From: Candidatus Thorarchaeota archaeon
GTDB taxonomy: Archaea > Asgardarchaeota > Thorarchaeia > Thorarchaeales > Thorarchaeaceae
Assembly (NCBI GenBank): GCA_038893995.1
Contig: JAWAQK010000027.1
Location: 1 to 31,568, forward strand
Reading direction: 5' to 3'
Length of the DNA stretch: 31,568 bases
Part shown: positions 1,487 through 18,045 of the stretch, piece after piece
Position numbering within the stretch: position 1 is the first letter of the stretch
How the letters are laid out: each line of letters opens with the position of its first letter
Program-made: the position numbers and the translations under genes
Notes under the pieces: generated by a model
What the model was told of the DNA's origin: nothing
Seen by the model: the letters and a program-made list of their open reading frames with translations, nothing else
The model's database searches: none

Positions 1487-2245
1487 ATGGCTGAACACCT
1501 TCACTCCGAGCTGTATGCATCAATTGCCACGCTCGACCAGCTCAAGAGAATGTACAACATGGGTGTGGTTGACGTAGTATCATTTCGAAGGGTTTCAGAG
1601 GCACTCATCAACGATGCGAGAGAAAAGCTGGAAGAGCTTCGACGGATCGGCCATGATGTCCTTCAGTTTATTCGGAGAGAGCGCATTACGGAGGAGTTCC
1701 CCGAGGCCGCTGGAATGTTGAGTCTCTCTCCTGGCTACTCATCGGACTCAAGCGGCACCGTATATCCCGAGGACTATCACAATGACATAGACCTTGCCGT
1801 ACTCGATGTGGCCAATGCACACTCGTCGAAGGTGTTCATGGGTCTCGCCGAATTGATAGTCCAGGTCGTACGGAAGCTACCTCAGTACCGTAACATCACC
1901 TATAACGATGTGATCGAGGCAGTCAACAGGGTTGCTGAGAGTGGTCTGATACCAGGTATCCGCACACTGCCGGGAGGGGTGAAGGTGGTTGGTCTCCGTC
2001 CGGTAGAACTCAGTGCAGATCAGGCGGACGTGATGGGTCTCGCAGCATCGCGAGGCTACGTCACTATCGAAGATGTGATGTTGCATCTGAGATGGTCCCA
2101 AGATCACGCACGCCAGGTACTCATGAGTCTCGTGGATGCTGGCATTGCTGTGTCTGAGATGCGCTACAGCACAGGCGGTCGCTACTACTTCCCTGGTCTG
2201 AACTCCCGTGACAACAAGACTATGTCGACCCAGAATAGTCAGTGA
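1487..2245 (+). CDS. ESCRT-II Vps22/36 (EAP30)-like protein with an N-terminal Vps28-like domain
   Basis: The C-terminal part (ITYNDVIEAVNRV...PVELSADQADVMGLAASRGYVTIEDVMLHLRWSQDHARQVLMSLVDAG...YYFPGL) follows the Vps22/SNF8 tandem winged-helix pattern. The N-terminus (ELYASIATLDQLKRMYNMGVVD...DVLQFIRRERI..EFPEA) resembles the Vps28 N-terminal domain. ATG 1487 follows GAGGTAGG; GTG 1460 is an alternative start. Confidence 0.85.
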   Translation: MAEHLHSELYASIATLDQLKRMYNMGVVDVVSFRRVSEALINDAREKLEELRRIGHDVLQFIRRERITEEFPEAAGMLSLSPGYSSDSSGTVYPEDYHNDIDLAVLDVANAHSSKVFMGLAELIVQVVRKLPQYRNITYNDVIEAVNRVAESGLIPGIRTLPGGVKVVGLRPVELSADQADVMGLAASRGYVTIEDVMLHLRWSQDHARQVLMSLVDAGIAVSEMRYSTGGRYYFPGLNSRDNKTMSTQNSQ

Positions 2246-2948
2246 CCCTCAACTTGACTGCTCCCAACCTCTGGTCGACCCATGTCGCCTGTTTTCTGTC
2301 CACCAGACGTTCCATGATGAGGTGTAGTTCGTCCTCCGGCAACGATGAAAACACCTGATCCCTCTCCTGAATCACAATACTCTTCACATCCAACAGCATG
2401 TTGCCAGTGTCGAGCGCCCACTTGTATATCTCGTCGACCCAATCTTCGAGTGATTTCCAGTAGACTCGGAGTCTAGTGTGGTCGCGGTCGAGCCATTTGG
2501 CAGCACCCGTTCTGACCATGTGGTCCCCTATGAGCGAATACGCCTCGATTCTCCTGCTGAATTCCCTAAATGGAATCTCAGACATGAATGTCGACCTTGA
2601 AAGAATGTGTATTCCTCTCGATCTCATCCAGTCATTCACAAAGTCCGCCCACTCCGATGCCCAACTGGCTATGCTCTTCTCATCGCTGGGGATTGAATAC
2701 ATGTGTCCAGCATCGTCTGCCGTGCCCCATCTCGGCAGGAGCAACGCTTGAGCACTCTCAATGGTCCTGTTCTCCGTGATCCCAGGTACCATCTGACCAG
2801 TCTCAGTTCGGTCTACGAGCGGTGACGACCCAGTATCACTCCTCGTTTCCGATTCTGCAGTTGTTTCTGTCATGTTCCCCTGGTGATCGCTCTCGTGAGT
2901 GTTCCTTTCTGGGCCCCTCCTTCTTTGTCTCTCACGTTCCGTGGTCAC
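2220..2948 (-). CDS. vps25: ESCRT-II Vps25-like protein
   Basis: WASEWADFVNDW...AKWLDRDHTRLRVYWKSLEDWVDEIYKWA...FSSLPEDELHLIMERL matches the Vps25 winged-helix pattern. The GTG start at 2948 overlaps the vps4 stop (GTGA). The N-terminus is low-complexity. Confidence 0.88.
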   Translation of the reverse strand: MTTERERQRRRGPERNTHESDHQGNMTETTAESETRSDTGSSPLVDRTETGQMVPGITENRTIESAQALLLPRWGTADDAGHMYSIPSDEKSIASWASEWADFVNDWMRSRGIHILSRSTFMSEIPFREFSRRIEAYSLIGDHMVRTGAAKWLDRDHTRLRVYWKSLEDWVDEIYKWALDTGNMLLDVKSIVIQERDQVFSSLPEDELHLIMERLVDRKQATWVDQRLGAVKLRVTDYSGST

Positions 2949-4171
2949 TGCTGTCCGCTCTCCGCCCAATCCATATACTTCCTGAGAATATCGGGAGAAG
3001 TGGCTGGCCGCACCTTCTGGATGGCCAACAGAAAGTCTTCCCTGTCGACCGGTCTCACATCCACGACCTCTCTATCAGCTGTACCACTCCTCTGGAGATC
3101 ACGTATGGGCTCCATTGCTGCATCTCTACAGACTACGCTTATGTCCCTTCCACTGTACCCCTCTGTGAGGTCGGCCAGCTCATCAAAGTCTACATTTGGA
3201 GCGACCTCTATGTCCTCCATATGATACTGAAATATTGCCCTCCTAGAATCCCTTGATGGGAGAGGTATCAGGATCTTCTTCTCGAATCTAGACACCAGAG
3301 CAATGTCCAGATGCCACGGGAGGTTCGTTGCTCCGATGACAGTCACCCTCTCGTTATTCCTGCTTGTCACTCCTTGAATCTCGGTCAGCATCTGGGTCTT
3401 CAACCTCCTCTCAGCGCCTATGTCATATCCTGATCTCGACGCTCCAATGGAGTCCAGCTCATCTATGAAAACTATTGATGGCTGATTTGCTCTTGCCATC
3501 TCAAACAGGGTCTTCACGAGCCTCTCCGACTCGCCGAACCATTTGCTGACCAGAGTTGCAGATGAGACATTGAAGAATGTCGCATTGGTTTCGGCAGCGA
3601 CAGCCTTTGCTATGAGGGTCTTTCCGCATCCTGCAGGGCCGTAGAACAGTATACCCCTCCAGGGTTGCCTCGTTCTACCTCGGAACAACTCCGGATGTTT
3701 CATGGGCATGATCAATGCATCGTAGATTGCCTGCTTTGCCTCCTCCAATCCGATTACGTCCGACATCCTGACATCTGGCTTCTCCCTGACTACGGTCCCT
3801 TCAAGCATGCTCTGGAACTGATCATCATCGTCACCATCATCACTTCGTTTCTTCTCTTCGTCCTCGTCAGTCCTCGGAAGTGGCCTCGGCATGCGCGTTT
3901 CTGATGTGGTCTTTGCATGAGATGAGGACGTGGCCTTGGATCGAGTGGTCCGCTTGATGCCCGAGAGAACGTAGACCCTGTCTACACACTCTTGAGCCCT
4001 GTCGAAGTAGAACTTCCTCGTCGACGGCAAAGAGGCAGACTTCGAACACTTCAGCAGTATCTTGCTGGCTCGCAGATAGTAATGGCATGCCTCCTTGCTC
4101 ATGCCGCGTTTGTCAAGATCGATCGCTCTGTCCAGTAAGGCCCTCAGTCCCTTGTCCACACGGTCTGACAT
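2945..4171 (-). CDS. vps4: Vps4 AAA+ ATPase (MIT + AAA)
   Basis: MIT helices (LDRAIDLDKRG..KEACHYY), acidic linker, EKPDVRMSDVIGLEEAKQ, PWRGILFYGPAGCGKT, LVSKWFGESERLVK, Walker B IVFIDELD, GATNLPW and TEGYSGRDI. Confidence 0.96.
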   Translation of the reverse strand: MSDRVDKGLRALLDRAIDLDKRGMSKEACHYYLRASKILLKCSKSASLPSTRKFYFDRAQECVDRVYVLSGIKRTTRSKATSSSHAKTTSETRMPRPLPRTDEDEEKKRSDDGDDDDQFQSMLEGTVVREKPDVRMSDVIGLEEAKQAIYDALIMPMKHPELFRGRTRQPWRGILFYGPAGCGKTLIAKAVAAETNATFFNVSSATLVSKWFGESERLVKTLFEMARANQPSIVFIDELDSIGASRSGYDIGAERRLKTQMLTEIQGVTSRNNERVTVIGATNLPWHLDIALVSRFEKKILIPLPSRDSRRAIFQYHMEDIEVAPNVDFDELADLTEGYSGRDISVVCRDAAMEPIRDLQRSGTADREVVDVRPVDREDFLLAIQKVRPATSPDILRKYMDWAESGQQ

Positions 4172-4259
4172 TGGTCTCCTCTGTCGACAAGGGTCGTAGT
4201 CTTATGAACTTCCTTATTCTGTATGTATGGCCTCCCACGACATCCGTCCGCCGCGAAGG

Positions 4260-4265
4260 TTTAAA
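4260..4265 (+). promoter_or_regulatory. Candidate TATA box in the divergent vps4/ESCRT-III intergenic region
   Basis: TTTAAA about 48 nt upstream of the ESCRT-III start. Confidence 0.45.
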
Positions 4266-4312
4266 CGGCAGTGTCAAGTAGGGTTAGTGTCTGACCGGGG
4301 CGATGGTACGCA

Positions 4313-4927
4313 TTGAGGACACTCAGAAAGGCTCTCACATGGGCTCGCGGTAAGCCCAACGTCAACGAGATAATAGTCAGCCTTCGGAACATCTCGAGAC
4401 AACTAGAGCGGGAGCGTAGGCACCTGGAGAGGGAGGAAGCCTCTATCATGGAGATGGCAGTCCAAGCACGTCAGGCAGGTCATGCGGAGGCATACTACAC
4501 CTACGCATCTGAGATCGCTCGATTCAGGAAACATATCCTTGCAATCGACAAGACTCGGTTCCAGATACTGCGCCTGGCAGCTCATCTTAAGAGGGCACAG
4601 GCCAGTGCACAGGCCGGTGTCGCACTTGAACAGGTGTCTCGTGTCCTTGGAGTCTTGAGGAGCGCGATCGACAGCAGACGGCTGGTTGAGAACGTCGATG
4701 AGATCTCGCGCCAACTGGATGCGCTGCATGTTGAGAGTACAATATCCGAAGAAGCCATGGGCATGGTTGGCGGTGTTGATGTGTCGCAGGAAGATGTGGC
4801 CTCCGTGATGGCTGAAATAGAGCGAAGCACAGGGTCCTCTCCGATCAGGGCTGAGATGGGCTCTACTGACAAGATCAAGAATCTGGAAGAGGCAATTGAG
4901 TCGTTGGAACGTGATCTTGGAGTCTGA
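4313..4927 (+). CDS. ESCRT-III subunit, Snf7 fold, Vps2/24/46-like class
   Basis: 204 aa and all-helical, with a basic N-half and acidic C-half. It contains RQLERERRHLEREE..AVQARQAG...YASEIARFRKH and a C-terminal MIM1-like helix (IKNLEEAIESLERDL). It is divergent from vps4. Confidence 0.9.
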   Translation: MRTLRKALTWARGKPNVNEIIVSLRNISRQLERERRHLEREEASIMEMAVQARQAGHAEAYYTYASEIARFRKHILAIDKTRFQILRLAAHLKRAQASAQAGVALEQVSRVLGVLRSAIDSRRLVENVDEISRQLDALHVESTISEEAMGMVGGVDVSQEDVASVMAEIERSTGSSPIRAEMGSTDKIKNLEEAIESLERDLGV

Positions 4928-4939
4928 CTGACTCCCAGG

Positions 4940-6517
4940 TCAGAATGTATACTGACGCAAGTACTCGTCCATCCTTCTCCTCATCGTATATCGCTCACGC
5001 ATGAGTGACCTGTATCTGGAGACAAAATCGTCCGTCATGAGCCTACCCAGCCTGAGATCTTCGATTGACCTACTGATGGCCCGATCCAGCTGGTCTGCCT
5101 CCTCTCTGAACCTCCTAAGTAAATCATCCTCTGCTCGACGGTAACCGTACGTGTCGTAGGTCCTTGGTTCCATCCGGTCCAGGCTCGGAAGTCCACTGCT
5201 GATGGGCATCCGTCTTCTGGCCTCGTAGTCCCAGGGTGGAAACCAGCGACCGTTGGTACGATCACCCGTCAATTCCCGTTCGTTGAGTCGCGATCTGTCG
5301 TGTGGCGCGAGCGATGTCCTCCTTGAGGAGAGTAGCGTATATACAAGGTCGTCAATCTTGAGCTTCACGTCGCTGGCAGCCACATCCACCTGCTCGAGCC
5401 TGCGCACTCTCTGAAGATCAGTCTGCACATAGCGATCGAACCTCTTGGCAATCTCGATATAGTCTGTCAATACCTTCTGAGTATGCTCTGAGCATGCAAT
5501 CTTCACATCTCCCTGCTTCATCTTGAGCACGAGATGCCGTCTTATTCTACCGTCCTCCTCGATGGAATTCAGGTACATCAGAGGGAAGTCGAACACAACA
5601 CCAGTCGTCTTCCTGAGTCTTCCCGTTTCCGCGATGAAGACCATCCTCTTATTTGTCACATAGAGCTCTCCCGTGCCATGGTCGGCCCTGAGGAAATCAC
5701 TTCCGATCAATCGGACCTCCGGGATGGCACAGATGGGCAGCTCATTCACTGCAAGCTCAGAATGCTGATAGAATCCAGCAAATTCCCTCCTGTGATAGTC
5801 AAGTCCCTCGAGGTGCTTGATGAGTTCTTCGAGTTCCCTGAGTGATGGCTCGACGGTCTCGTCGACGGTCTGCCTGTATTGGTTCCCAATCTCTGTGATC
5901 CTTCTGGTCAGTCCTTCGATAAATGGAAACTGCTCGATATCCCATGTCTCTTGATTCATGAATCCGTTAGTTTCAGCGGCGATTCTTCTAGCAACAATGT
6001 CGGCCTGGCTCACAATCCTATTCTTGATCAGGGGCACGCCATCGAGCAGTCCCTCGAGCTTGTCCTCGAGCCAGTTGAACGCAAGGAAGTTTGCCATCCT
6101 GATCGAATATAGTAGCCTCTTTGCGAGCATCAATCTGTTGGCAAACTCCCTGAACTTGACATGACCGTGTTGAATCAACATGATTGCGTGTCTCAGGTCG
6201 CCTGCGAGCTTTCGTCTCCTCTCCTCTATCGATATCACCCGTGTGGAGAGGCATCGTGGACATACCTGTTCCGTTCTCCTCCCAGACCGGATGTTCTTCG
6301 ACCCGCAGCTCGGGCACTTTGGGTCGGAGCTCTTGGCATCTGGACCAAGATGACCATGACAGTCACCACAGACGAGATACTGTGTGGTCTTGGTCCTGAG
6401 ACAGTCAGGACAGAGTACTGCACCACAGTCCTGACACATGTTGATGGCCCCAGCATTCTGACAAGAGACACACACATTCGTCTTGTGGTCAGCTTTCATT
6501 TCACGTGCTTCTTGCAT
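4940..6517 (-). CDS. Multidomain protein: Zn fingers, coiled coil, PH/GRAM-like domain and C-terminal Vps23/Vps37 steadiness-box-like hairpin (putative ESCRT-I subunit)
   Basis: Six CxxC pairs (aa 16-88), a long helical region, GELYVTNKRMVFIAE..VVFDFPLMYLNSIE (GRAM/PH-like) and C-terminal EADQLDRAISRSIEDLRLGRLMTDDFVSRYRSLMRERY. It is adjacent to the ESCRT-III gene. Confidence 0.7.
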   Translation of the reverse strand: MQEAREMKADHKTNVCVSCQNAGAINMCQDCGAVLCPDCLRTKTTQYLVCGDCHGHLGPDAKSSDPKCPSCGSKNIRSGRRTEQVCPRCLSTRVISIEERRRKLAGDLRHAIMLIQHGHVKFREFANRLMLAKRLLYSIRMANFLAFNWLEDKLEGLLDGVPLIKNRIVSQADIVARRIAAETNGFMNQETWDIEQFPFIEGLTRRITEIGNQYRQTVDETVEPSLRELEELIKHLEGLDYHRREFAGFYQHSELAVNELPICAIPEVRLIGSDFLRADHGTGELYVTNKRMVFIAETGRLRKTTGVVFDFPLMYLNSIEEDGRIRRHLVLKMKQGDVKIACSEHTQKVLTDYIEIAKRFDRYVQTDLQRVRRLEQVDVAASDVKLKIDDLVYTLLSSRRTSLAPHDRSRLNERELTGDRTNGRWFPPWDYEARRRMPISSGLPSLDRMEPRTYDTYGYRRAEDDLLRRFREEADQLDRAISRSIEDLRLGRLMTDDFVSRYRSLMRERYTMRRRMDEYLRQYTF

Positions 6518-11300: not shown

Positions 11301-11581
11301 CGGGAGATGGCCCCACTTCCATGGACCTCTCGGAATACGCTCATAAACCAAGCGATACTCGGCAGATCACTTGTCCGAATTCAGTCAAAGTAGCATCGGT
11401 TTCTCATGGCCCGAGAGCCTGTCTGGAGTCTTTCCGACCGCCAGTATATGGAGGACTCACCTGGTCGGTGCAAATACTTATTTACCTTTGTTCCATCCGA
11501 ACAGTAACGCGCGTCACCACTTCCAACTCACGCCAACTTCAGTTGCATTGGTTCCCAGCCTTAGCTGCAGGCTTGGCTCAG

Positions 11582-12565
11582 ATGGCACCGTGGGAGATGA
11601 TCCGACTGGTCAGCAGACTGATTAAGACCCCCGATAGACCTCGCGACAGAAGCCTCACACCATCCGGGCAGGTCTGTCCAGTGTGTAGCTCCACTGAAGT
11701 CCACATCGATTTGACCCGTGGCGAAGTGATATGCGCCGGCTGCGGGCTGGTTCTCTCGGACCATTCCATTGATATGGGTCCAGAATGGAGGGCATTCACA
11801 GCAGATGAGCAGAATGCTCGTCAGCGTGTGGGAGGTCCAACTGACTGGAGCAAGTTCGATCAGGGCTTGACAACAGTCATTGGTAACCAGAACGTGGACG
11901 CATCCGGTCGCAGACTCAATTCTAACCGACGGGCACAGATAAACAGGCTTCGTAAGTGGCAGATACGCACCAAAGTTCACTCCTCTGACAAGCGCAATCT
12001 TGCAGTCGCAATGACGGAGCTTCATCGCATAAGCTCCCAGCTCAGTATTCCTTATTCTATCCGTGAGACCTCAGCCGTCATCTACAGGAAGGCCCTCCGC
12101 AAGCGTCTCACGCGCGGACGGACGATCCTGGGTATGATTGCAGCCTCTCTCTATCTTGCCTGTCGAGTCCATCAGGTTCCACGTCCCCTTGAGGAGGTCG
12201 TGGAACAGATACACATCACTCGAAAGGAGCTGAGCCTGTGCGTACGACTCATACTTCGACATCTGAACCTCAAGATCCCGTTCTCAAACCCCGTTGAGTT
12301 TGTCCACAGGTTTGGCATGGAACTGAATCTGCCTGGCGAGACCCGACGGAAGGCAATCGACATTCTCAGGATGGCACGCGAGGAGCATCTCACGATAGGA
12401 AAGGATCCAAAGGGGATGGCGGCTGCAGCCATCTACATCTCGAGTATTCTGACAGGCACAAGGCGGACCCAGCTGGAGATCGCAAGAACTGCTAGGGTCA
12501 CTGAAGTGACTGTCAGGAATCGCTACAAGGAGATAGTCGAGAAGCTCAACATAACTACCACCTAG
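11582..12565 (+). CDS. tfb: Transcription initiation factor IIB (TFB)
   Basis: Zn ribbon CPVC...CAGCG, IDMGPEWRAF, RLRKWQ and two cyclin repeats (GKDPKGMAAAAIY, VTEVTVRNRYKE). The start is uncertain (ATG 11582 or 11597). Confidence 0.95.
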   Translation: MAPWEMIRLVSRLIKTPDRPRDRSLTPSGQVCPVCSSTEVHIDLTRGEVICAGCGLVLSDHSIDMGPEWRAFTADEQNARQRVGGPTDWSKFDQGLTTVIGNQNVDASGRRLNSNRRAQINRLRKWQIRTKVHSSDKRNLAVAMTELHRISSQLSIPYSIRETSAVIYRKALRKRLTRGRTILGMIAASLYLACRVHQVPRPLEEVVEQIHITRKELSLCVRLILRHLNLKIPFSNPVEFVHRFGMELNLPGETRRKAIDILRMAREEHLTIGKDPKGMAAAAIYISSILTGTRRTQLEIARTARVTEVTVRNRYKEIVEKLNITTT

Positions 12566-12666
12566 AAACGGTGGCGGCCGGGTCGATCATCTGCAGTGCG
12601 ACCCGGCTGTCTTCCCCGTTCATCCCGCATATGCTTATCACGACTCAACTGTCAGCATTATCTCGG

Positions 12667-13518
12667 ATGATGCATGTCTTGTCCTCGAAACGGTTCATTC
12701 ACGGTGCGTGGTTGATAGAGAAGGACACAGGGAGGACCATGGTCTCACGTGTATACGACCGTACCGAGATCGATATGGACCTGATAGGACCATATCTCTC
12801 AGCCACTCACACCTTCATAGACAGGGCCTCCAGGGAATCGCTCAAGACAATAGATACCGAGAGCAGCAAGTTCGTGTGGGAGACCACAGACCAGCTTCTG
12901 CTTGTGATGGCGGTATCGAAGAATGCACGTCCTGCTCACATCCGTTTTCTTCTACGCTACTGCATCAACGAATTCATGTCTAACCACATTCCCCCCGGCG
13001 AGACCCTCTCCACGATGCTGAAGAGTTGGACCGGCTCTGCTGACACATTCCAGTCGTTTGCCAACTTCCTTGATGAGCTTGTGGAGCAGTACGAGTCCAC
13101 AGACGAGAGTCTTGTGGCCAGCAAGTCGATGGACTGTCTTGAGGTGTACAACCATCTGTTTCGGTCCCTTATGTCTGTCAAGGTCGACCATGAGCTGCGA
13201 GAGAGGCTCGTCAGTGAGATCAGTCGGGCAATGGAACCGCTGATCAAGAAGTACCCGTTCTTGTCAAGGGCAACAGTCGACACGGCCGGCATTGAGGCAC
13301 TTGACATCGATGTCGCAAAGTCTGTCGTCGAATACCGGGTCTTGAGAAAGGCGCTTGAAGAGCTGTTTGTCGTGGTGACGCAGATCATCAAGAGGACGGT
13401 CGATACGTCAGCGTTCCGTAACATGATATTTGACCATGTGATGCCCTACGTGAAACGGGACATGGATCGGCTCCAGACATATGCCATTCTCGACAACGTC
13501 ATTCGGAACATCTTCTAG
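12667..13518 (+). CDS. Longin-like domain protein with an uncharacterised helical C-terminal domain
   Basis: IHGAWLIEKDTGRTMVSR...DMDLIGPYLSATHTF...LKTI...LLLVMAVS...FM..WTG..DTFQSF follows the Asgard longin pattern. The start is uncertain. Confidence 0.7.
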   Translation: MMHVLSSKRFIHGAWLIEKDTGRTMVSRVYDRTEIDMDLIGPYLSATHTFIDRASRESLKTIDTESSKFVWETTDQLLLVMAVSKNARPAHIRFLLRYCINEFMSNHIPPGETLSTMLKSWTGSADTFQSFANFLDELVEQYESTDESLVASKSMDCLEVYNHLFRSLMSVKVDHELRERLVSEISRAMEPLIKKYPFLSRATVDTAGIEALDIDVAKSVVEYRVLRKALEELFVVVTQIIKRTVDTSAFRNMIFDHVMPYVKRDMDRLQTYAILDNVIRNIF

Positions 13519-17244: not shown

Positions 17245-18045
17245 CTAGTGTACTTGCCAGAACGTCAGAATGAGAATTGCTGTGCATATGGCAGAGATCG
17301 CAAATGCCCACGAAGTTGAGGTATTGTGCACTTCCCTGATACCGAAGGCCAAGATGAACCCGACCCATATGAACGAGGCGGTGGTCAGGTAGTCTATGAT
17401 GACGAATGCGCCCGACTGAAACACAGTCGTCACGATGTATGTTGTACCATATTGCTCTACTGACATCTCTGGAATCGTCAACATCAGGATGAGGACTCCC
17501 AGCAGCCTTGCCAGTATCACAGGCACCAAGCTGTATCCGACGATCATCATGGACCTGCCGTACCTTGCAGTACCGCCGGCTATCTTCAATATGACATGAG
17601 CAGCTCCGGCACCTATCGTCAGGTAGAGCATACCCAGAATCAAGTTGGGGACGATTGTGAATAGCCCTACGCTTATTACTCCCGGTGCGACAGGGCTAGA
17701 CAGAAGACCAATCGCGACAGGTTCCTCATCAACTATGTAGTTCAGCGTCAGTTTGGAGCACACTGCAAGGAATGCCGCTGTCATGATCAGTGCGTTGAAG
17801 AGGACTACAACGGCAGGACCCCTGCCATCCGGTCGTCGAGCGATGTCCCGGAATGTAGCAGCCGGCCTGATCAAGACTCCTATTATCCTACCCACGAGCC
17901 CGAGCGTCTTGACGTCCTCTGCAAGTGGTCGTTTCAGAAATGGGAGTACTCTCTCGAGAATCTCTTCGGCTATCTTCTGTCCGCAGACGGGACAGACAGT
18001 TGCGTCCGAGGGTACTGGACTGTTGCAGGCGCTGCATCTTCTCAC
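17245..18045 (-). CDS. Zinc-ribbon + Yip1-domain membrane protein
   Basis: N-terminal CSAC..CPVC, GVLIRPAATFRDI, LKIAGG..YG..M.IVGYSLVP, GIREVH and about 5 TM helices. Confidence 0.8.
   Translation of the reverse strand: MRRCSACNSPVPSDATVCPVCGQKIAEEILERVLPFLKRPLAEDVKTLGLVGRIIGVLIRPAATFRDIARRPDGRGPAVVVLFNALIMTAAFLAVCSKLTLNYIVDEEPVAIGLLSSPVAPGVISVGLFTIVPNLILGMLYLTIGAGAAHVILKIAGGTARYGRSMMIVGYSLVPVILARLLGVLILMLTIPEMSVEQYGTTYIVTTVFQSGAFVIIDYLTTASFIWVGFILAFGIREVHNTSTSWAFAISAICTAILILTFWQVH

Follow-up and report, generated by a model that had tools for sequence, protein, structure and literature searches.

In eukaryotes, the ESCRT-I headpiece is built from three hairpins, belonging to Vps23, Vps28, and Vps37, and ESCRT-II contains Vps22, Vps36, and two copies of Vps25. 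The closest systems described so far come from Asgard archaea. Hatano et al. (2022, Nat Commun, PMC9192718) cloned the orthologues SB (steadiness box), ESCRT3A, Vps4, Vps25, and Vps22 of Thorarchaeota AB_25 and used them in yeast two-hybrid assays. According to their report, Thorarchaeota are without ubiquitin, Thor Vps22 interacts with itself, Vps25 binds ESCRT-IIIB, and a Loki SB protein binds Vps22. The UEV-Vps23 protein is missing from both Thor and Loki (bioRxiv 10.1101/2023.07.25.550441). In Asgard, Makarova et al. (2024, mBio, PMC10936438) described SB-fused Vps22 and a further family, Znr_CC_PH_SB, which they regard as probably part of ESCRT-I and whose PH domain is predicted to bind membrane.

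The locus analyzed here is of the same kind. The genes ThorAB25_08990-09030 are five in number and arranged in an order identical to that of the present cluster, and both genomes encode ESCRT-IIIB elsewhere and lack ubiquitin. Amino-acid identity to AB_25 ranged from about 50% for the 525-aa protein (48% to its orthologue) to 60% for Vps22, and no architectural difference was found. The present metagenome-assembled genome (MAG) is smaller (2.3 Mb) than that of AB_25, and within their families its proteins diverge the most (best matches 53% and 68%). The unusual wiring, in which Vps22 carries a Vps28-type hairpin, the adaptor is of the Zn/PH/SB type, and ubiquitin is lacking, is real, but papers of 2022 and 2024 had described it before, which answers the question of the preliminary description whether this architecture had been described.

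Layout and conservation of the five-gene cluster

Positions 1487-6517 of the window (the whole 31,568-nt stretch of DNA under analysis) contain five adjoining ESCRT genes on mixed strands, identified by ORF calls, Pfam, PDB profile searches, and AlphaFold models combined with structure searches:

1487..2245, + strand: 252-aa Vps22-like ESCRT-II subunit (start codon ATG at 1487) that begins with a Vps28-N domain of the steadiness-box type
2220..2969, - strand: Vps25 (ESCRT-II), PF05871
2945..4171, - strand: Vps4 AAA+ ATPase, Pfam AAA
4313..4927, + strand: ESCRT-III (Snf7 Pfam), assigned to the IIIA (Vps2/24/46-like) type from PDB profile matches and the positional orthologue
4940..6517, - strand: Znr_CC_PH_SB protein of 525 aa, putative ESCRT-I-like adaptor, from the AF2 model and homologues

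The adjacent genes and the domain assignments of the preliminary description were thus recovered by Pfam, PDB profiles, and the AlphaFold models, the hairpins at the level of structure and with sub-threshold sequence matches. To compare synteny, as that description had suggested, related loci were retrieved and the neighbors were searched by tblastn across 73 loci, one of them the AB_25 contig (L046). The order ArgRS-TldD-TldD-ZnPHSB-Snf7-Vps4-Vps25-Vps22-AspRS was kept in all 73 retrieved Thorarchaeota loci, as far as the contigs reach. This is the standard Thorarchaeota five-gene ESCRT membrane-remodelling cluster. It is organized in four transcription units, namely Vps22, Vps4 followed by Vps25, ESCRT-IIIA, and Znr_CC_PH_SB; the start of Vps25 and the stop of Vps4 overlap by 25 nt, and these two genes are probably translationally coupled.

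The three central products gave clear family matches. Vps25 matched PF05871 with an E value of 1.9e-12 (48 bits, cut-off 27), and its C-terminal part alone reached 6.5e-13. The protein consists of a conserved short basic N-terminal motif, which aligns among the Thor orthologues and with the start of ThorAB25_09020, then a variable acidic linker and winged helices. An SB-like N-terminal subdomain was looked for in Thor Vps25, and only the basic motif and the acidic linker were seen there. Vps4 has the AAA+ domain (AAA, E 5.8e-40; AAA_lid_3, E 1e-13) flanked by an N-terminal MIT domain (E 3e-5, 24.5 bits, cut-off 30) and a C-terminal Vps4_C domain (E 6e-4, 20.2 bits, cut-off 21.3), both in the expected places and slightly below threshold. 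The 4313-4927 product passed the Snf7/ESCRT-III Pfam cut-off (E 1.1e-9), and its best PDB profile matches were CHMP2A (2.2e-4) and CHMP3 (the two together 2e-4 to 1e-3), but Heimdall ESCRT-IIIB scored close to them (2e-3). Its positional orthologue ThorAB25_09000 carries the ESCRT3A label in the data of Hatano et al., and on these profile matches and this label the clustered ESCRT-III is tentatively classified as IIIA. An ESCRT-IIIB type is encoded outside the cluster, on contig C54.

Domain architecture of the two hairpin-bearing proteins

The 1487-2245 product matched EAP30 (PF04157) with an E value of 8e-10 (39.2 bits, cut-off 26.8), and its family profile found human SNF8/Vps22 at E 7.6e-20 in the PDB profile search. 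Vps22 chains were the top matches of the whole AF2 model (pLDDT 79.8) in both Foldseek and VIA-align. Two parts were delimited by VIA-align on this model:

1487..1723, + strand: Vps28-N-like helical hairpin and short helices, residues 1-79
1757..2209, + strand: Vps22 helix and tandem winged-helix core, residues 91-241

The core superposed on 3cuq_A (Z 14.5, rmsd 2.9 Å over 150 aa) and 1w7p_A (Z 13.8). Residues 1-79 superposed on chain 6vme_E of the human ESCRT-I headpiece, assigned to VPS28 from residue numbering, with a Z of 11.1 and an rmsd of 1.8 Å over 77 aa. The match to yeast Vps28 2caz_E had a Z of 8.5. For small helical domains, Z values of about 10-11 fall within the range where, as VIA-align warns, a match may reflect a common arrangement. 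The sequence signals were below threshold: the Pfam VPS28 match covered model positions 2-61 (E 0.077, 13.2 bits against 24.5), and the family profile found the yeast Vps28 core at E about 0.1. A partial VPS28 match was also seen in Vps22-sized ORFs of four relatives, and the motif A-S-I-A-T-L-D in this domain is invariant across 33 orthologues. [quoted passage not shown] The SB-fused Vps22 of Makarova et al. (cog.002769) likewise starts with an SB-type hairpin and continues with Vps22 winged helices; in comparison, the present hairpin matches the Vps28 subunit specifically, including the short helices after the hairpin, and a search of 24 genomes of the present family yielded no free canonical Vps28 in addition to it.

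The 525-aa protein as a whole matched no Pfam family. Its AlphaFold model (pLDDT 78.7) shows five parts:

6230..6481, - strand: zinc-binding region, residues 13-96, whose six Cys pairs would suffice for three Zn sites
5783..6229, - strand: three long helices, coiled-coil or stalk-like, residues 97-245 (AF2 secondary structure, pLDDT mostly >90)
5420..5755, - strand: PH domain of the GRAM/GLUE type, residues 255-366, from structural matches
5147..5317, - strand: disordered, poorly conserved linker, residues 401-457 (pLDDT <50, variable alignment columns)
4943..5146, - strand: C-terminal steadiness-box helical hairpin, residues 458-525 (pLDDT about 96)

Across 33 sequences, the six Cys pairs are either invariant or retained in 90% or more, and the zinc region gave sub-threshold Pfam matches to DZR, zf-B_box, and Zn_Ribbon_TF, together with weak RING/FYVE/PHD-like PDB matches. 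The PH domain aligned with the MTMR2 GRAM-PH domain 1lw3_A (Z 13.4, rmsd 2.5 Å over 107 aa) and with EAP45-GLUE 2dx5_A (Z 10.8); Foldseek found 2hth_B, 2cay_A, and 5gnh (E 1e-4 to 1e-3), and there was a weak Pfam GRAM match. The hairpin superposed on the yeast Vps23 steadiness box (2p22_A, residues 320-385) with an rmsd of 1.8 Å over 66 aa and a Z of 10.1, once again within the warning range, and its sequence matches were sub-threshold (Pfam Mod_r/Vps37 C-terminus, E 0.18; Vps23 core, E 0.59). The SB carries the motif R-x-G...F-x-R-R-Y. Whole-model Foldseek searches recovered the Vps22 core and the PH domain and missed both hairpins, which were found only by the exhaustive VIA-align search. 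This succession of Zn ribbons, coiled coil, PH, and C-terminal steadiness box is that of Znr_CC_PH_SB (cog.011556), here recovered independently by modelling.

We found 98 homologues of the 525-aa protein, nearly all labelled Thorarchaeota and forming 84 clusters at 50% identity, and of 81 Asgard genomes sampled, 54 contained the family. The relatives from other Asgard lineages resemble it over residues 10-400 or so and differ in length and in the C-terminal part; the full-length matches were reading frames of about 440-730 aa.

Searches for ubiquitin and Vps28 genes, and candidate partners in the genome

In agreement with the preliminary description, a Pfam comparison of 37 window ORFs, all but a few short or overlapping ones, detected no ubiquitin, E1, E2, E3, or UEV family. 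The search was extended to the whole genome, a MAG of 82 contigs that is 91% complete, and the families for ubiquitin, UEV, E2, and Vps28 (PF00240, PF05743, PF00179, and PF03997) gave nothing above noise; for the first three, the best E value was 0.13. The only small proteins that turned up were three of the ThiS/MoaD type. A conventional UEV-Vps23 together with a separate canonical Vps28, a pair that could have served these roles, was looked for elsewhere in this genome, and neither was found. Moreover, canonical Vps28 was found in none of 24 genomes of the same family, several of them 97-98% complete, and VPS28 exceeded the Pfam cut-off in 11 of 16 other Asgard genomes.

Two further proteins are candidate partners, their genes unlinked to the ESCRT cluster. 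The first is a 410-aa BAR/Vps28-like protein encoded on contig C1, whose family is conserved in Thorarchaeota. Pfam VPS28 was matched by 10 of 32 family members (best E 1.4e-5), and the family profile matched 2j9w_A, a C-terminal domain of Vps28, at E 0.089; the copy in this genome had no VPS28 Pfam match, and an Atlas search returned only unnamed clusters. A Thor 'BAR-SB' protein with an HHpred match to Vps28 2J9U is listed in Table S3 of Makarova et al. The second is a small GvpG/SHOCT-like hairpin protein of ~110-125 aa (C13:35000-35371), apparently unremarked so far, which 40 of the 41 family genomes encode; hhalign aligned it to the SB hairpin at a probability of 71% (E 3.8e-5). A reading frame at C14:21442-21810, a weaker candidate for a second small SB-like ORF, gave no significant match (hhalign probability 1-4% against the SB profile and the small-protein family; custom HMM E 4.1). 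A second multidomain EAP30 protein, encoded elsewhere in the genome, is a further possible partner.

Probable wiring of the ESCRT-I/II layer

Collectively, the gene identities, the domain folds, and the strict synteny are established, and genes for ubiquitin, UEV, E2, and canonical Vps28 were not detectable. The folds shared with eukaryotic ESCRT-I and ESCRT-II and their downstream partners are the Vps23-type SB, the Vps28-N hairpin, the GLUE/GRAM-type PH, the tandem winged helices, Vps25, ESCRT-III, and Vps4. They are distributed otherwise than in eukaryotes, as had been proposed: Vps28-N is fused to Vps22 and not to a Vps28-C bundle, the SB protein and not Vps36 carries the PH and Zn modules, the PH domain is unsplit, and there is no UEV, ubiquitin, or recognizable Vps37 or Mvb12. 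The cluster supplies two headpiece-type hairpins, compared with three in eukaryotes. Within their proteins, these two rank with the regions of highest conservation and model confidence, and in solved ESCRT-I headpieces they superpose on different subunits, at 1.8 Å each. The 525-aa and Vps22 family profiles, i.e., SB against Vps28-N, aligned with an hhalign probability of 0.25%, a value that says nothing on binding.

We think it fairly probable that this is a vertically inherited, canonical Thorarchaeota ESCRT locus encoding a ubiquitin-independent, reduced Asgard pathway in which the 525-aa adaptor is joined to the Vps22 hairpin. The 525-aa protein would act upstream as an ESCRT-I-like adaptor, and its GRAM/GLUE-type PH and zinc modules may bind the membrane and/or a non-ubiquitin signal. 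Contact between its Vps23-type SB hairpin and the Vps28-type hairpin of Vps22 would join the adaptor to ESCRT-II without a free Vps28. Vps25 would then recruit ESCRT-IIIB, followed by the ESCRT-IIIA of the cluster, and Vps4 would take the ESCRT-III polymer apart. The preliminary description had seen in the cluster a minimal chain and supercomplex. The modules of such a chain are present, but three points weaken the minimal supercomplex: the clustered ESCRT-III is probably of the IIIA type, and the IIIB type, which bound Vps25 in published yeast two-hybrid assays, is encoded on C54; the 410-aa and second EAP30 proteins are encoded elsewhere; and the profiles of the two hairpins bear no recognizable resemblance.

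Alternatively, the SB hairpin could assemble with separate hairpin proteins (the small one, the 410-aa one, or both), with the Vps28-C-like bundle of the 410-aa protein contacting ESCRT-II and the Vps22 hairpin serving dimerization or another role. The conservation of both families, the VPS28 and 2j9w_A matches of the 410-aa family, the listed BAR-SB protein, and the alignment of the small protein to the SB hairpin are in line with this arrangement. We nevertheless hold it to be rather unlikely: the similarities are all weak, the genes lie apart from the cluster, and the invariant Vps28-N-like domain on Vps22 would be left without an explained partner.

It is also conceivable, although we judge it unlikely, that the cluster serves mainly cell division or membrane repair instead of cargo sorting, the 525-aa protein being a membrane-targeting or regulatory factor whose hairpin only self-associates and forms no ESCRT-I-like headpiece. 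ESCRT-III and Vps4 act in division in TACK archaea (PMC10936438), no cargo tag (ubiquitin) was detectable genome-wide, and Pfam matches indicate that SHOCT/GvpG-type helical hairpins are common oligomerization modules. Against this, synteny of the 525-aa gene with ESCRT-II/III/Vps4 is strict in the 73 loci, its hairpin has Vps23 of the solved ESCRT-I core as top structural match, and in another Asgard genome (G031, contig C44) the genes for a homologue of the 525-aa protein and for a canonical Vps28 lie about 5 kb apart.

A three-hairpin, ubiquitin-independent headpiece, in which SB and the Vps22 hairpin would be completed by the C13 protein as Vps37 and Zn/PH would read a non-ubiquitin signal, seems to us quite improbable. 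That a ubiquitin/UEV/Vps28 set sits in the unassembled ~9% of the genome and the rewiring is an assembly artefact, as 91% completeness and 82 contigs might suggest, is hardly credible given the absence of canonical Vps28 from all 24 same-family genomes and two independent papers reporting Thorarchaeota without ubiquitin or UEV-Vps23.

The reduced pathway that we favor bears on how an ESCRT-I/II layer can work without ubiquitin in Thorarchaeota, and on whether ubiquitin coupling is ancestral or came later on the path to eukaryotes. This question and the architecture are already in the literature (Hatano et al. 2022; Makarova et al. 2024), and no new question is opened by the present locus. What the window contributes is one more, rather divergent, orthologous copy, together with structural evidence, obtained independently, for both hairpin assignments and a set of further candidate partners encoded in this genome.

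The conserved ESCRT cluster

Five adjacent ESCRT genes had been described at positions 1487-6517, and this was borne out by the open reading frames, Pfam, AlphaFold models and structure searches:

1487-2245, + strand, Vps22-like protein, Pfam EAP30
2220-2969, - strand, Vps25, Pfam ESCRT-II/Vps25
2945-4171, - strand, Vps4, Pfam AAA with weak MIT and Vps4_C matches
4313-4927, + strand, ESCRT-III, Pfam Snf7
4940-6517, - strand, 525-aa protein, matching no Pfam family

The genome, whose contig C27 is the window, comprises 2.33 Mb in 82 contigs and is 91% complete, and almost all closest matches of the proteins encoded on this contig carry a Thorarchaeota label. A scan of species-representative genomes gave 73 loci, nearly all labelled Thorarchaeota. 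At 73/73, judged as far as each contig reaches, the gene order ArgRS, TldD, TldD, ZnPHSB (the 525-aa protein), Snf7, Vps4, Vps25, Vps22, AspRS and the orientations were identical, and all nine genes were visible in 46. The cluster differs in architecture from none of the 73 syntenic loci, and we have hardly any doubt that it is the standard Thorarchaeota ESCRT cluster. The 525-aa family was found in 54 of the 81 sampled Asgard genomes (14/21 sampled families), and in one genome outside Thorarchaeota (G031, contig C44) roughly 5 kb separate its gene from a canonical Vps28 gene.

Vps4 and Vps25 lie on the same strand with a 25-nt overlap, the Vps25 start falling over the Vps4 stop, which suggests that the two are coupled in translation. 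The long Vps25 start is supported by a short basic N-terminal motif (Arg/Lys/Glu-rich; 2876-2969, - strand) that is kept across Thorarchaeota orthologues, where it is followed by a variable acidic linker of 60-80 aa and then winged helices.

Elsewhere in the window, a 315-aa protein (12571-13518, + strand) is encoded 6 kb from the cluster, its sole Pfam hint being the FUZ/MON1/HPS1 first longin domain (E 0.0025, under the cut-off). A membrane protein that joins an N-terminal zinc ribbon to a Yip1 domain is encoded at 17245-18045 (- strand). In a 414-aa TFIIB homologue (11321-12565, + strand) the zinc ribbon begins only at residue 118; provided that translation does start at the ATG at 11321, the N-terminus is extended by about 115 aa.

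Domain architecture of the Vps22-like and 525-aa proteins

A Vps22 family profile built from 33 orthologues matched human SNF8/Vps22 over positions 89-240 (E 7.6e-20), and its next four matches were all yeast Vps28 core fragments (E about 0.1, positions 6-66). The single sequence gave a Pfam VPS28 match below threshold (model positions 2-61), and the same partial match recurs in four related genomes, in ORFs of Vps22 size. The AlphaFold model (pLDDT 79.8) has an N-terminal hairpin with short helices, a disordered linker and a winged-helix core. In the exhaustive structure search, residues 91-241 corresponded to the Vps22 fold (3cuq_A, Z 14.5), while residues 1-79 superposed on residues 34-111 of 6vme_E (Z 11.1, rmsd 1.8 Å over 77 aa) and on yeast Vps28 of the ESCRT-I core (2caz_E, Z 8.5). 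The 6vme_E chain, from the human ESCRT-I headpiece, was taken as VPS28 because no other subunit fits the residue numbering. A Vps28 C-terminal bundle is absent. Since a Vps28-N-type fold precedes a Vps22 core, the name 'Vps28N-Vps22' proposed in the preliminary description is correct.

Across 33 aligned orthologues of the 525-aa protein, residues 14-89 contain six conserved Cys pairs; the centre that follows is also well conserved, and beyond it a variable linker leads to a C-terminal motif that is again conserved. The AlphaFold model (pLDDT 78.7) was divided as follows:

residues 13-96, zinc region
residues 97-245, three long helices
residues 261-363, PH fold of seven strands and a helix
residues 401-457, disordered linker
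residues 458-524, helical hairpin, very confident

The PH domain matched MTMR2 (Z 13.4), Lam6 (Z 12.8) and EAP45-GLUE (Z 10.8, 18% identity), Foldseek also recovered Vps36 and EAP45 GLUE domains, and the domain is of GRAM/GLUE type. The C-terminal hairpin superposed on the yeast Vps23 steadiness box (SB; 2p22_A residues 320-385; Z 10.1, rmsd 1.8 Å/66 aa); below-threshold sequence matches to the Mod_r/Vps37 C-terminus (E 0.18) and Vps23 core (E 0.59) agree with the structure. The Cys pairs, the model and the MTMR2, GLUE and 2p22_A matches uphold the earlier reading of this product as a Zn/PH/steadiness-box protein.

Ubiquitin-related and ESCRT-like genes outside the cluster

As first noted, no ubiquitin, E1, E2, E3 or UEV family was matched by the 37 ORFs of the window scanned against Pfam. 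A six-frame search of the whole 91%-complete genome with PF00240 and PF05743, for ubiquitin and UEV genes, and with PF00179 and PF03997 yielded no match below E 0.13. Small beta-grasp proteins of the ThiS/MoaD type occur in most archaea, and three over the Pfam cut-off (C28:25828-26091, C5:24409-24618 and C25:23225-23449, on other contigs of this genome) were the only ubiquitin-like folds detected. Vps28 matches over the Pfam cut-off were found in 0/24 same-family genomes and were clear (E 1e-12 to 1e-18) in 11 of 16 other Asgard genomes.

The cluster had been proposed to encode a minimal chain from the Zn/PH sensor through ESCRT-II, Vps25 and ESCRT-III to Vps4. Its domain identities stand, but the clustered ESCRT-III is one type only, and further candidate components lie elsewhere. 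The clustered protein has CHMP2A and CHMP3 as its best PDB matches, and Hatano et al. label its positional orthologue, ThorAB25_09000, as ESCRT3A; it is probably of the IIIA type. ESCRT-IIIB (Vps20/32/60-like; C54:9167-9832, + strand, equal to retrieved locus L090:6168-6833) is encoded apart, between inositol monophosphatase-like and HAD hydrolase genes, and its best PDB match is Heimdall ESCRT-IIIB (E 1.6e-7). A conserved helical 410-aa Thorarchaeota protein has its orthologue at C1:29915-31147 (- strand; L015:1498-2745), adjoining a D-aminoacyl-tRNA deacylase gene. Weak Pfam matches to VPS28 (10/32 members) and BAR (6/32) and a profile match to the Vps28 C-terminal domain (E 0.089) were obtained for this family, which is probably the Thorarchaeota 'BAR-SB' entry of Makarova 2024, Table S3.

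A second ESCRT-II-like locus (L111:4775-9995) encodes an 876-aa protein (C7:25364-27994, + strand) in which a C-terminal EAP30 domain is combined with a carboxypeptidase-regulatory-like domain. Next to it and divergent from it are genes for a 370-aa unknown protein, an N-terminally extended Arf/Roc-type GTPase and a coiled-coil protein of 217 aa ending in a GvpG-like hairpin. A 745-aa ORF on contig C2 gave a further weak EAP30 match.

An additional ORF of the genome was picked up by the SB-hairpin HMM (C13:35000-35371, + strand, E 1e-3; L089:6001-6375/L091:1501-1875), with a product of ~110-125 aa; it is a genuine gene that 40/41 genomes of the family share. Its C-terminal helix-turn-helix aligned with the 525-aa SB hairpin (hhalign probability 71%, E 3.8e-5). 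Pfam reported it as GvpG/SHOCT-like, and it lies between Fe-S oxidoreductase and ZnuA genes with no ESCRT genes nearby. It may provide a third hairpin, but the likeness may be just a common hairpin motif. For a 123-aa ORF with the motif L-D-R-G-E-I-D-A-D-V-F (C14:21442-21810, + strand), profile comparisons with the SB gave no significant match.

Published descriptions and a possible ESCRT-I/II bridge

Makarova et al. 2024 (PMC10936438) reported that Asgard Vps22 proteins carry an SB fusion, and that cog.011556, made up of three Zn ribbons, a coiled coil, an SB and a PH domain that should bind membranes, is likely to be part of ESCRT-I and was probably already present in the Asgard ancestor. 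Hatano et al. 2022 (PMC9192718) put six Thorarchaeota AB_25 proteins into Y2H: ThorAB25_08990 'SB', 09000 'ESCRT3A', 09010 Vps4, 09020 Vps25, 09030 Vps22 and 07240 'ESCRT3B'. ThorAB25_08990 to 09030 are the five genes of our cluster, the AB_25 contig being among the syntenic loci (L046). In that study, Thorarchaeota Vps22 interacted with itself, the Loki SB protein bound Vps22, Vps25 bound ESCRT-IIIB, and ubiquitin seemed to be missing from Thorarchaeota. A 2023 preprint (10.1101/2023.07.25.550441) notes that, among Asgard lineages, UEV-Vps23 is missing only from Loki and Thor. Given the 2024 and 2022 descriptions, whether this architecture was described before is answered with yes; the preliminary observation is correct and its interpretation reasonable, and both are already in the literature.

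From the folds, their conservation and the Loki SB-Vps22 Y2H result, we lean slightly towards the proposal that the SB of the 525-aa protein would dock directly on the Vps28-N hairpin of Vps22, forming a covalently simplified ESCRT-I/II bridge.
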